A stretch of 64,000 nt of DNA from Octopus sinensis. Taxonomy: Eukaryota. This document shows, in pieces, positions 19,741-62,783 of the stretch; position 1 is the first letter of the stretch; each line of letters starts with the position of its first letter. A model generated the notes under the pieces. That model was not told the DNA's origin, searched no databases, and saw nothing but the letters and a program-made list of their open reading frames with translations. Made by a program: the position numbers and the translations under genes. The stretch lies in contig NW_021833278.1 in NCBI RefSeq assembly GCF_006345805.1, positions 13,182-77,181 on the forward strand. Reading direction: 5' to 3'.

Positions 19741-19908
19741 TTAGGTCCTGCTTTGATGGTCTCCATTTCCTTTCGAACGTGATCTCATCTTCAAGCAGTG
19801 AACGTCGCCCCAAAGACATGGGGCCTCGAAGTCGTCATCTGCACGAAGGGCATCACGGCTGTCACGCAACTGTCGGTTCACTAAGTCCCTTTGGCGTGCA
19901 ATCATAGA
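19741..19908 (-). CDS. Gene A coding exon 2: SMIARQRDLVNRQLRDSRDALRADDDFEAPCLWGDVHCLKMRSRSKGNGDHQSRT* (Cys-X6-Cys peptide)
   Basis: Polypyrimidine tract plus CAG acceptor (tttctttcttttttatatccacag) at 19909-19911; phase 0 matches the exon 1 donor; open to TAA at 19741; homologous to the exons at 27259 and 37502. Confidence 0.8.
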   Translation of the reverse strand, partial: SMIARQRDLVNRQLRDSRDALRADDDFEAPCLWGDVHCLKMRSRSKGNGDHQSRT

Positions 19909-20409
19909 CTGTGGATATAAAAAAGAAAGAAAAAAGAAACAACTTAGTAAACTGCAATGAAACACAGAGAAAGAAATTCTTACAACACAAACAACAAAAC
20001 TTTCGCTGGTAAAAACAAAAGATCTGAAATAAATGGAGAAATTCGAAAGACGGTTTGTCATATTTACAGATGCAAATTTGTGTTTCATGAGCAGCTTTCA
20101 ACATTTTCCATCCAAGCGTTTTTAGCCTAATATCTATACCATTGTTTGTAGCTTTATCAACTTGGAATTTTTTACCGTTAAAAAGAATTTGCTTCACATC
20201 TCTCGAAGTTTCTAAATACTTATAAAATAAGCTTCCTGAAATGATCTCTGATAAGTACGAAGCTTCTAAAATAGATGGCGGTTTGGACTGCTTTAGTATA
20301 GCGGCAAAAACGTCTACCACGTTTAAAGAAGATGTGGGTTCGAGTCCTATGTGAGACTAGGTAGAGCATTTATTGTAAAAAAAAGAAAGACTCTTAGAAT
20401 AACGAGTGA

Positions 20410-20690
20410 ATCATTGAGAACAACACATTGTATATATTGGATTTAAAATTTTAAACAAGGCCAGCAATTTTGGGCGACAAGAGAGGGCGTTTACATCAAC
20501 CCTGGTGATCAACGGCTATTTATTTTATCGATCCCGGCGCTCCACTGCTACTTATTTTATCGAACCCAAATAAATGAAAGGCAAAGTCGACATCGGCGGA
20601 ATTTGAACTCAGAATGTAAAGATGGACGAAATGCCGCTAAGAATTTTGTTCGACGTGCTAACGAGTCTGCTAGCTTCGGCGCTTTAGCAA
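20410..20690 (-). mobile_element. Diverged SINE family 1 copy in the gene A intron (paralogous copy at 38075-38300 in gene C)
   Basis: Reverse-complement match to the family 1 core; shared position in A and C introns. Confidence 0.7.
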
Positions 20691-21239
20691 TCCTACTCCC
20701 AATGTAGGATTCCTCACCATCCAGGTGACAGGCACAGCCATAAGATGCATTAGGAATCTATAGCAATTGGAAGGGCGTGACCCAACTGAAATAAACATTA
20801 ACACCTGTGTGACGTGAGGGCTAAGGAGAAATGAAAGTGTCACCTCTGGAGTTTGCAAATGACCACTATACTGATACGTAACTGGACAGAATAAATTTAC
20901 CAACTATAAATGTCTTTGAATAACCAGTCACTCATCTGGGAAGGCCTTGAAATCAATCTGGGGTCAATGTGTGACCCAGTGATAATAAAAAGACTTGAAA
21001 GGAGGTCTGCAATCAAATAACTTTACTTAACACTTTGCAACTAAATCAGTGGAGGCAAAGATGCCTCTCATTTACTTGACAATTTATGCACCACATTGTA
21101 GAAATCACAATCTAAGTGTATGTCAAAGCAAACTCTTACACTGTTGTACCATTGAATTACAAATAATGCTCATCTTCTATGCTCGGATGACCCCAGAGCT
21201 TCCAAGAATACAAATGTATTCGTCTTTGCATAGATAAAA

Positions 21240-21665
21240 TGACAAAATTGTGTGTTAAGTCCCCATGAGGGATCTTTTTAACTTAAGAAGATGAAATTTC
21301 ATAATACTTACATCATTTGTATCTAATATCTATGGTTAAAATTTCATCAACGCAAAAGTATATGAATTGTCATGGGGGTTGTGGCCCTTATGCATAGAAT
21401 ATAATTTCCAAATTTCGTAAAGATCCATTCAGAACTTTTGACTTAGTTTGGATCATAAAAAAATGACTAAAATTTGGATTTAAGGCCCCCATTAGGGTGT
21501 CTTAGAATCCTCATGGAAACTTTGTCATTTTTCTCCCCATGACACTCCCTGGACCCTAATAAGGCATGTGTAAAAATTTGAATGAAATCGGTTGTGTAGT
21601 CTCAAGTTTGTAGGGATTCACACAGACAAACAGAAAGGACAGACAGACTACACATTCTCAGTTAT
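21240..21665 (-). mobile_element. Probable non-autonomous Helitron-like repeat in the gene A intron (copy at ~28085-28520 in gene B)
   Basis: Minus strand starts atataaaactgagaa...tgtctgtctg...aaccgatttcattcaaattt, similar to the 5' part of the element at 9939; 3' CTAG end not identified. Confidence 0.35.
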
Positions 21666-21994
21666 ATTATATATATATTAATATATATATATATATAATA
21701 TATATATATATATATATAATATATATATAATCATATAGAATATATATATATATATTAATAATATAATACATATATATATATATTATATATATATATATAT
21801 ATATATATATATATATATATATATATATAATATATATATATAATAATATATATATATATATATTGGGTGAATTCCATCTCATGCACAGATTTTTTAATTA
21901 ATTTTTGAAAACTAAACATTTTGAAACTTCAGTGCATGAGATTAAAAGATCCGATATATGTATATACGTATGTCAGCATTTATGCATGGATGAT

Positions 21995-59492: not shown

Positions 59493-59720
59493 CTTTACTA
59501 CCCACAAAGGGCTAAACATAGAGGAGACAAACAAAGACAGATAAAGGGATTAAGTCGATTACATCGACCCCAGTGCGAAACTGGTACTTAATTTATCGAC
59601 CTCGAAAGGATGAATGGCAAAGTCGACCTTGGTGGAATTTGAACTCAGAACGTAACGACAGACGAAATACCGCTAAGCATTTCGCCCGGCGTGCTAACGT
59701 TTCTGCCAGCTCGCCGCCTA
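59493..59720 (-). mobile_element. SINE family 1 copy
   Basis: Reverse-complement core. Confidence 0.85.
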
Positions 59721-60239
59721 ATATTCATATATATATATATATGTATGCATGTATGTATCTATGTATGCATGTATATATATACATGTATGTATTCTCACAT
59801 ATGTACGTATGCACGTATGTATATATGAGTACATGGATGTATGCATTTATACATATATGAAAGTATTTATATGAATGTATATCATATATCATATATATAT
59901 ATCATATATCATATATCATACGTATATGCGTGCGCGTGTGTATGTTTATTTATGTAAATATGTGTGTGTATGTGTGGTAGTTAGCACAGCTATACAATTG
60001 AAAGAGAGTGCGGCGTTCGAAACCCGCAGGTGATGTTACAGCCTCTCCTAGCATTTTCAATTTTATAATTAAATATATGTATGCATTTATTTAAATACCT
60101 AGGTATGTACATATCTATGAATGTACAATAAAAACTTAGATAAAACTTAAGATATGTTTCGACCAAAGATTAGCACCACTTTATAGGATTATCTAAATCC
60201 TTTTTAAGTCAAGTTTTGTTTATGGTACATTCAAGTAGT

Positions 60240-60625
60240 GAGATCTTGTTGAGTGAGTTGTATCCAGGTATGGGTGGCTTATCTGGTATTCCTTAAAGAA
60301 ATCTGTCCAGACTCCGTTTAAAGGTGATGGGACCCTTTTCCTCTTTAATCAGTTTTGGGACAATGTTAAACAGGGCAAGGCCTGTCGAGGAAAAGAAATT
60401 ATGTCGCAGTGTACCTATATGTTGTGATCTTGAATTGGGCAGGAGACGTATGGCCCGTGGTCCCAGCCTTGGATGAACCTTGAAACTAATATTCAGGTCA
60501 TTTGGGCAATGCTGGCAGTATATTCTCCACAGCGTACAAATGATGTAACACTCGCGGCGGCGCTGGAGAGAGTAGAGTTCCAAGGCTTTGAGGCGGTCCC
60601 AGTAATCGAGATCAATCATGCCCAT
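60240..60625 (-). mobile_element. CR1/L2-group LINE 3' fragment
   Basis: LDYWDRLKALELYSLQRRRE...FKRSLDRFL.GIPDKP..PGY resembles the CR1-group RT C-terminus. Confidence 0.8.
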
Positions 60626-62651
60626 GTATGTATGTATATAAATATGTTTGTATGTATGTGTTTATGTATGTATGTATGTATGTATGTATGTATGTATGTA
60701 TGTATGTATGTATGTATGTATGTATGTACGTATGTATGCATGAATTTATATATTGAAGACTTGAAGACTTGAACACCTATGAAGATTCATGAAATTTTGA
60801 TATTTCGTAACATTATTTTTTTGGAAATATATTCAATTCGGGAAAAATCTGGATTAGCTTAATTTAAATTTGACTAATTGGGGCCGGTAGTAGCAACTTT
60901 CATTAAATCATCCCGTTTGCAGAAACGCAACGTGTACCGGTAATGTATATACTTACTTTAGTATAATTATACTGGAAATTGTGTTTTTAATTCAGGTTGT
61001 CTACATAGAGGAATTACTAAGGTTTCGCATGCAGTGACGGCTAAGATCTTTGGGTATACTTCATAATAAAGTTCAGAATGAAAAATAAACACGGTTGACA
61101 AGTCAGAAATTTACATAAAAGAATAAAATATGCGTGAGTGAGAGAGAAAAGGGGGAGGAAGATAGATAGATGTGCACGCATATGTGGCTGCATGCATATG
61201 TACGTGTTCACATGTATATACGTACATGCGTATGCACTTCATCTACACACACAAACACACACACATATTCATATATATATATGTATAGCAGATACACATA
61301 CAGACACAGACGCACATAATATGCATGGATGTATGGATGTATATATATATATATATATATATATATATATATATATATATATATATATATATATACAAAA
61401 AATACATACATACATACATACATACATACATACATACATACATACATATTGATATATATCTGCGTATATGTATGTATATGTTTGTGTCTATGCATATATG
61501 CATAGGCATAAATATATACACTCATATCGATATCAATATATATGCTTATATGTATGTACATATATACATATTTGTGTGTGTATGTGTGTGTGAGTGTGTG
61601 TGGGGGGAGGGCATTCTCTCCCCAAAAGCTAAAAGCAACCAACAATGTTTTTTTAAAAAAGTTTCGAGTCTATGATCCAAACAAGTCCAAAGCCAAAATC
61701 TCTCAAGAGGGGCGCTGAGTAATTTAAATGCATATCTAAATTCGCCATTAATTACTGGAACAAATCTAATATTACAACAGATGGCTAATTAATTCATCAC
61801 AGATGTTTTCATATATCTCTAATATAATGTTAGCACCTGCTCTATAGCTAAAATCTTGGTCAACGACTGTCTATACTTTCTTTTCATATTCCAAATTGCA
61901 ATGTCTGTTCTGTTAGCCTATATTTTTTCTGGAGTTTTGACAGAAGCTTTTGTACCAGCATTCTTTTATATTATGGTTGGGTATACCTTGCATATCATTG
62001 TATCTTGTAATTTGTTTGTCTTCAATAGCATTCTTTCTCCTACTGGCATGTATGTATATATGTATACATATATACGTGTATGTATGTATTTGTGTACATA
62101 TGTATATATATGTATAAACGTGTATGTATCTACAAATGTATGAATGTATGTTAGTAAAGAAGTCATTGTATGTGTGGGTTTTTTATGTGTATGCCTTTCT
62201 GTGTCACTATACTTCTATTCATATGTGTACATGTGTATACCAGTATGTATATGCGCATTCATGTGTATATATACACTCTCTCTATAGTTGAAAGGATCAC
62301 CTCAACGGCAACGATTTCACCGTCTTGATTCACTTGTGTTATGTATATGTATGTTTTTATGAATGTGTACATATGTATGTATATATATATATTTGTATAT
62401 ATATATATATATAATATATATAATATATATATATATATATATATTATATGCATGTAACTATATATATATGTGTGCGAGTGTCTATATATATACATATATA
62501 TGAGCATGTTTGCATATATATAGGTATATAAGTATGCATTTATGTATGTATGTATAATATTAATAATAATAATAATAATAATAATAATAATAATAATAAA
62601 ATAATAATAATAATAATAATAACAATAATAATAGTGAAATGCTACACTTAC

Positions 62652-62783
62652 ATTTTTCCATCGGAGCAGATCGCTAGCCCTCTCGTCGTTTATTGGCACC
62701 GTCTGTACTGGTTCAAACATCACCGCTGCTACGCTTAACAAAACCACTAGCACAATCATATTCTTGTATATACTGTGTTCCAT
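62652..62783 (-). CDS. Gene C coding exon 1: MEHSIYKNMIVLVVLLSVAAVMFEPVQTVPINDERASDLLRWKN
   Basis: Third paralog of the signal-peptide exon; canonical donor GTAAGT at 62651. Confidence 0.88.

Follow-up and report, generated by a model that had tools for sequence, protein, structure and literature searches.

We analyzed 64,000 nucleotides of Octopus sinensis DNA (contig NW_021833278.1, positions 13,182 to 77,181; hereafter the window), the last 64 kb of an unplaced 77-kb contig in a 2.7-Gb genome. On the minus strand of the window, in the order C, B, A, lie three two-exon genes whose predicted secreted products appear related to the neuropeptide allatostatin C (AstC). The initial annotation of this DNA had described three copies of a 44-codon first exon, and these were found at 23137-23006 (donor GTAATT), 28906-28775 (GTAGTT) and 62783-62652 (GTAAGT). 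The three downstream exons were also in place, behind pyrimidine-CAG acceptors at 19908, 27259 and 37502, as were AATAAA signals at 19708, 27049 and 37283. The count of three peptide genes was too high: since gene B is frameshifted before the ring, two ring peptides, A and C, are predicted. The features are as follows.

62652..62783, minus strand: gene C exon 1, coding part; 44 codons, predicted signal peptide and pro-region, phase-0 donor GTAAGT
37503..62651, minus strand: gene C intron; 25,149 bases, repeat-rich
37362..37502, minus strand: gene C exon 2, coding part; 46 residues and stop, candidate cleavage sites RKR, RDSR, KK and KRKK
37377..37412, minus strand: predicted mature peptide C, NDPCIWNVISCV; ring at 37403-37380, putative cleavage
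37278..37283, minus strand: AATAAA of gene C; the match of one contig to the gene ends near 37249
63063..63069, minus strand: TATAAAA of gene C; counterparts at 29208 (gene B) and 23436 (gene A)
28775..28906, minus strand: gene B exon 1, coding part; 44 codons, donor GTAGTT
27143..27259, minus strand: gene B exon 2; frameshifted upstream of the ring, 38 residues without Cys
23006..23137, minus strand: gene A exon 1, coding part; 44 codons, donor GTAATT, same join in O. vulgaris CAI9731369.1
19741..19908, minus strand: gene A exon 2, coding part; 55 residues, ring CLWGDVHC at 19818-19795

Structure, splicing and copy number of the three genes

Joining the two coding parts of gene C gives a precursor of 44 + 46 = 90 residues whose C-terminal end reads KK-NDPCIWNVISCV-KRKK, as had been annotated. 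The precursor contains a signal-peptide candidate with a hydrophobic core (Kyte-Doolittle 9-residue mean up to 3.3), and peptide C comprises the 12 residues between KK and KRKK. KK is a weaker cleavage site than KR, and a longer form of peptide C is possible through a cut at RDSR, which is kept in A and C. Residues 1-44 of gene C are identical to residues 1-44 of the O. vulgaris model CAI9731370.1, and the identity extends through the first 77 residues.

Regarding the three splice junctions that had been proposed, that of gene C (62652/37502) was present in contigs of two of four runs, and those of genes A (23006/19908) and B (28775/27259) were not seen. In these two runs, which come from different studies, the contigs stop matching at 37502 and continue with 30 letters that match the end of exon 1 of gene C exactly, with 0 mismatches to C, 1 to B and 2 to A. 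None of the runs searched is on record as RNA (20 of the 24 entries listed contained at least half of the query's sequence words, from nine studies and five organism codes); against this stands the fact that no intronless copy was found in this genome. Depth of the gene C contigs reached 4202 in one run and lay between 4 and 10 in the other three, a quantity that is not indicative of RNA level. In a third run, gene C exon 2 is joined at its acceptor (window 37502-37504) to a repeat with 506 genomic matches, possibly a cryptic exon, and the fourth run examined for this exon contains an unspliced piece of gene A. One contig goes from the 3' end of gene C back into exon 2 (window 37249-37448), in a circular or chimeric form.

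Gene B reads as a frame of 82 residues with no Cys ring, and its ring DNA (27170-27147) is identical to that of gene C, out of frame. The shifted frame forms the end of CAI9731370.1, with 36 of 38 residues identical, so an assembly error is an unlikely source of the frameshift. This O. vulgaris model fuses gene C to gene B via an unrelated insert and leaves gene C directly before the first Cys, a mis-splicing that would help explain why protein searches missed the gene C peptide. These searches returned two O. vulgaris models, CAI9731369.1 and CAI9731370.1; the other 66 of the 68 matches fall within the insert in the middle of the fused model. The exons of gene B had no contig cover in any of the four runs, which carries no evidential weight, as the records were filtered.

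For gene A, the annotated precursor of 44 + 55 = 99 residues stood, but the mature peptide proposed for it is a guess, since the gene has neither a stop after the ring nor a dibasic site before it. A 16-residue tail reads through the stretch that is 3' untranslated region (UTR) in gene C, and the ring is preceded by a monobasic Arg or RDSR only. Compared with CAI9731369.1, gene A shows three differences in 99 residues, and 54 of the 55 residues of exon 2 are identical. Such near-identity to O. vulgaris models puts the DNA within that octopus group or near it.

Each exon has three copies only, all in the window, according to DNA searches and a protein search of the whole genome. Exon 1 is 96-98% identical among the copies, so the triplication is either recent or homogenised. 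All three genes carry TATAAAA approximately 290-300 bases upstream of the ATG, which we infer to be a promoter element. Two further ring candidates were rejected: CFWNTWLC at window 3642 has no exon homology to the cluster, and a PCGWNAVSCL match on C10 sits inside a multicopy repeat.

Probable kinship with canonical AstC, ring type and sequence change

In O. vulgaris, AstC is reported as one precursor on chromosome 12 with two exons and the mature peptide AVITACYFQAVSCY, identical across the cephalopods examined, in which Gln replaces the usual Asn (10.64898/2026.02.18.706622). In the O. sinensis genome, the canonical gene gave a single pattern match on C12 (C12:54830836-54856542; AVITACYFQAVSCY gene at C12:54856510), with a first exon of 34 residues, a phase-0 GTAAGT donor, a 25.5-kb intron and a second exon of 56 residues, 90 in total. 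The cluster, on its own contig, is thus separate from the AVITACYFQAVSCY gene, as had been supposed.

The proposed relatedness to AstC was borne out by the shared phase-0 intron, by the start of exon 2 and by location on one O. vulgaris contig. Canonical exon 2 starts SEISRERQLANRLL and the window exons start SMIARQRDLVNRQL, SMITRQGDLMNRLF and FMITRKRDLMNRLL; over these first 14 residues, A, B and C have 8, 7 and 8 identities to canonical AstC, respectively. For each of the three, 0 of 100,000 anchored shuffles reached the observed score. Among 13,282 open 14-mers following YAG in 593 kb of octopus DNA, from which 14 loci repeating cluster genes or AstC had been excluded, three scored at least 25, and these were the three cluster exons, which as copies are not independent in this test. 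Without the anchor, four of 598,261 14-mers scored at least 30, one of them by chance. A single O. vulgaris contig of 89,567,221 bases carries both the AstC models (CAI9731308/309) and the cluster models (CAI9731369/370), about 60 accessions apart, on the assumption that accessions follow chromosome order.

An AstC precursor is described as holding a single C-terminal peptide with two Cys six residues apart (PMC8786951, PMC9048919, as far as the sections available state it). Such a single C-terminal Cys-X6-Cys peptide was found in frame in A and C and out of frame in B. The AstC-type loop Asn is present in C and not in A, and before the peptide gene C has KK and RDSR where canonical AstC has KR. 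There is one phase-0 intron in the pro-region, as in spiralian AstC genes. The Atlas search with gene A gave prohormone-1-like 0.89, consomatin 0.88 and AstC 0.87, all below the 0.9 bar; prohormone-1-like entries are included in a published AstC set, to judge from the part of it available (PMC9048919). Pfam assigned no significant family to the cluster exons, to gene A or to canonical AstC itself, and no non-coding likeness was found between the cluster and the AstC locus. An AstC-family origin of the cluster is very probable.

Regarding ring type, a supplement lists 20 mollusc AstC entries, with Asn at loop position 3 in 19 and a basic tail in all 20; Nautilus is among those with both, and the available part of the list holds no coleoid (PMC8514136). 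Both traits are present in gene C and absent from octopus AstC. Taking the oyster SHIRCLVNVIACY and Aplysia SHYSSMCMFNVVACY peptides as given in the accessible text of PMC4200219 and PMC8786951, ring C is identical by eye to oyster/Nautilus AstC at three of six loop positions, plus conservative matches, compared with one of six for octopus AstC, and four of its five loop changes go toward the standard molluscan type. According to this comparison, gene C would combine an octopus-like pro-region with a standard molluscan ring, a state compatible both with a young duplicate that converged and with an old paralog that retained the ring.

No other standard molluscan-type AstC gene was found in the genome with two patterns, which are restrictive. 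The first gave four matches, none with a basic tail. Of the second pattern's 40 matches, 30 were checked by script, none combining a basic pair upstream with a basic tail; eight lacked a basic tail in the matched letters, and two were genes B and C. Judged by eye, octopus AstC (L007:1363-1530, the last exon on C12) is closer to the nemertean 'AstC2'/arthropod AstCC type than to the AstC of Nautilus, bivalves and gastropods, of which it is perhaps not a one-to-one ortholog. In nemerteans, a second AstC paralog has been noted in the text available (PMC8557429).

The likeness to somatostatin and urotensin II that had been remarked on did not hold, as the cluster has no WK motif, a six-residue loop and no phase-1 intron before the ring, and the octopus SSRP gene lies elsewhere. 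Molluscan SSRPs are defined, in the part of Koch et al. 2022 available, by a C.WK.C loop and a phase-1 intron ahead of it (PMC9048919). Such an SSRP/urotensin II-like gene is present on the unplaced contig C10524, with a phase-1 intron just before the ring (last exon L132:1482-1540, minus strand). In gene C this intron is absent, the contigs running through the ring.

To assess change between copies, we compared A with C. In the rings, 8 of the 18 bases of the six loop codons differ, and every one of these falls in a changed codon; the two Cys and the Trp are retained. Differences elsewhere amount to 6/91 bases in the UTR, 13/193 in the acceptor flank and 45/606 in the intron. The ring differs significantly from the UTR (Fisher p 2e-4) and from the intron flank (p 6e-5). 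Over the whole coding part of exon 2, 28 of 132 aligned bases differ, against 14 of 260 downstream. This one pairwise comparison suggests that the ring may be under diversifying selection. The pair also shows a conserved signal region with accelerated change of the mature peptide, as in doppelganger venom peptides. The O. vulgaris model of gene A carries C-type residues at exon-1 positions 4 and 27, a hint of conversion between copies that could explain part of the exon-1 identity.

Elsewhere in the window are transposon remnants: a retroelement fragment with a weak zf-RVT match at 18388-19287 (plus strand), a similar one at 36239-36748 (plus strand) and, judged by eye, a transposase-like frame at 5447-5980 (minus strand). 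Tandem arrays at 40518-41380, 44035-44950 and 12609-13465 have periods of about 186, 444 and 95 bases, respectively, and further copies of the 186-base unit are scattered through the window. Contig C9749 carries at its start open frames of 313 and 219 residues (L017:4584-5522 and L017:2127-2783, both minus strand) with no Pfam match, which are probably exons of a neighbouring gene.

Candidate roles of the cluster peptides

Our favoured account is that octopus AstC was duplicated long enough ago to erase non-coding likeness to AstC, that the duplicate was recently triplicated, and that birth-and-death evolution would then have left C with a standard molluscan-type ring, A diverged and B without a ring. 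The signal peptide would route the precursor to the secretory pathway, convertases would cleave at KK (or RDSR) and at KRKK, a carboxypeptidase would remove the basic tail, and a Cys-Cys bond would close the six-residue loop of peptide C. The peptide would then bind AstCR1 or AstCR2, most likely the animal's own receptors. AstCR2 would be the first to consider, given that canonical AstC needs micromolar concentrations to activate it: the reported EC50 is 28 nM at AstCR1 and 3.5 uM at AstCR2 (10.64898/2026.02.18.706622). We found AstC receptors of the published lengths in the genome, 410 residues on C23 with VVFTPP and 443 residues on C2377. Both receptor genes are intronless (AstCR2 at L113:1171-2499 and AstCR1 at L114:1228-2457, both minus strand), and the nearest solved structures of the 443-residue receptor are somatostatin receptors; a motif pattern for the receptors gave noise. 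That the predicted peptide acts on AstC-type receptors seems to us rather probable, and we give an even chance to the account as a whole, in which ligands from AstC duplicates, released by a specialised tissue, would act on AstC-type receptors of the same animal.

Several observations weigh against this account. The presumed homology rests on some 14 residues, ring spacing, intron phase and linkage. Between the cluster and AstC, BLASTP gave E = 0.01 and profile-profile comparison a probability of 10%; a hidden Markov model of AstC exon 2 ranked the cluster exon no higher than noise (E 3.3), and exon 1 is weakly like AstC exon 1, with 55, 209 and 1621 of 5000 shuffles reaching the score. A phase-0 intron is found in SSRP as well as AstC genes, according to the text available, and cannot tell the two apart (PMC9048919). 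The Atlas search with gene C exon 2 gave no informative match, and protein searches, of limited sensitivity, found no relative outside O. vulgaris. The ring motif taken alone is weak evidence: the degenerate C-x-W-N-x-x-S-C pattern had 29 genome matches, many in one repeat, compared with 7 in a reversed control, and none of the 10 loci examined among 20 retrieved had a precursor-like context. The Trp and Val of gene C stand where the listed mollusc AstCs have Val/Phe/Leu and Tyr. Finally, a conserved neuropeptide of the ordinary kind does not typically show such rapid non-synonymous change, and AstCR2 is presumably older than the triplication.

The fast ring change would keep an exocrine role open. 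It could be that an AstC duplicate was recruited to venom or another outward secretion, its ring converging on bivalve and snail AstC and acting on their receptors, a possibility that we consider unlikely; slightly less probable still is that the octopus's own duplicate re-evolved the bivalve/snail ring and is secreted as a mimic for molluscan prey, with gene A as a further diverging specificity. Consistent with a prey-directed mimic, ring C is nearer to oyster/Nautilus AstC than to octopus AstC while the pro-region follows octopus AstC, and the ring has changed far more than exon 1, the UTR or the intron flank, although gene conversion could account for part of the exon-1 identity. Tandem birth-and-death arrays are likewise known for SF1 octopus venom peptides, as reported in the part available of a 2026 preprint by Koch (10.64898/2026.02.02.703354). 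In the same preprint, AstC models from molluscs and crustaceans were among those run against 822 secreted salivary-gland transcripts (expressed above 1000 transcripts per million, together with homologs; O. vulgaris was one of the species), and its accessible text names no AstC mimic (10.64898/2026.02.02.703354). The venom reading of the initial annotation received no direct support. The cluster genes could be among the 27 unannotated superfamilies of that screen. A review of hormone mimics names no AstC-type toxin in the sections available (PMC13311285), and our literature searches turned up no doppelganger peptides of an AstC-mimic class. In the supplements of PMC7693380 and PMC11525497 the ring motifs had no match, a result to which we give no weight, as a control showed no octopus salivary peptide there.

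Overlapping with our favoured account in mechanism and differing in history, a further reading takes gene C as the coleoid descendant of the standard, Nautilus-type AstC and the published octopus AstC, likened to nemertean AstC2/arthropod AstCC, as a second paralog, the cluster being its old neighbour, recently triplicated. The layout of C is that of Nautilus (basic pair, Asn, short spacer, a ring with N-V-x-S, basic tail), the restrictive patterns found no further standard-type AstC gene in the genome, and the pro-region of octopus AstC resembles by eye nemertean 'Allatostatin C2' entries (PMC9048919, in the part available). We nevertheless doubt this reading, given that the start of exon 2 matches octopus AstC exactly at the splice site, that C, by eye, has no counterpart of the long, acidic and helical pro-region found in standard molluscan precursors, and that protein searches of limited sensitivity found no squid, cuttlefish or other octopod relative. 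Local triplication is reportedly the source of arthropod AstC, CC and CCC (Veenstra 2016).

A last reading, which we hold to be improbable, is that the genes are duplicates in decay or unrelated to AstC: a small gene for a secreted protein would have been copied, the copies would be transcribed but serve no receptor, and the ring likeness would be incidental. In its favour, B is frameshifted, A lacks a stop and a dibasic site, family-level searches were negative and ring-like motifs arise by chance in the genome. Against it, relaxed selection predicts ring change at the rate of the flanks, whereas the observed rate was about sixfold higher and spared the two Cys and the Trp. C is spliced, carries a complete set of processing sites and agrees with O. 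vulgaris at each of its first 77 residues, and the anchored AstC match beats its empirical control.

Returning to the account of diversifying AstC-type ligands, a 2026 preprint describes one AstC peptide for two O. vulgaris receptors that differ 100-fold in sensitivity, and suggests the AstC system as a way into octopus nociception, as far as its available part goes (10.64898/2026.02.18.706622). A 2021 survey found one AstC precursor per mollusc, with one exception. The cluster adds two candidate AstC-type ligands on the same O. vulgaris contig as AstC, and gene C restores the Asn-containing, basic-tailed ring known from Nautilus, bivalves and snails. If true, the outcome could be a better AstCR2 ligand, the molluscan-type AstC that coleoids seemed to lack or a mimic directed at prey, and the candidate ligands are directly testable in the existing receptor assay. 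Full-text searches with the peptide strings and accessions returned no paper, subscription journals being largely outside their coverage, and no description of the cluster was found in the literature on octopus AstC, duplication, the neuropeptidome and venom mimicry. We conclude that the cluster is a real, undescribed, fast-evolving variant of the AstC family, with a putative peptide function.

Comparison with known AstC and SSRP systems

Like O. vulgaris AstC, the cluster genes have two coding exons, and gene C shares with it a phase-0 intron of about 25 kb, a 90-residue precursor and one C-terminal Cys-X6-Cys peptide. They differ from it by the three tandem copies, a different signal peptide, a shorter spacer ahead of the ring and a basic tail. 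The O. vulgaris ring YFQAVS contrasts with IWNVIS in C and LWGDVH in A, and the cluster ring changes fast whereas O. vulgaris AstC is reported as invariant across cephalopods.

Compared with the oyster, Aplysia and Nautilus peptides, gene C has the aliphatic first loop residue, Asn-Val-Ile/Val-Ser/Ala and the basic tail. It is unlike standard molluscan AstC in the Trp at loop position 2, in Val instead of Tyr after the second Cys and in having neither a His/Gln-rich N-terminus nor the long acidic helical pro-region; in gene A, the standard Asn is lost.

With consomatins and SSRP, the cluster shares the pattern of duplicated neuropeptide genes with a conserved signal region, a variable ring and a ring Trp. 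Consomatins and SSRP have a four-residue C.WK.C loop and a phase-1 intron, both of which the cluster genes lack, and consomatins, unlike the cluster peptides, are shown venom-gland products (PMC9048919, in the part available). Finally, arthropods with AstC, AstCC and AstCCC also have several AstC-family genes per genome and a six-residue loop, but those paralogs are old and conserved, whereas the octopus cluster is a recent, near-identical triplication with one frameshifted copy.

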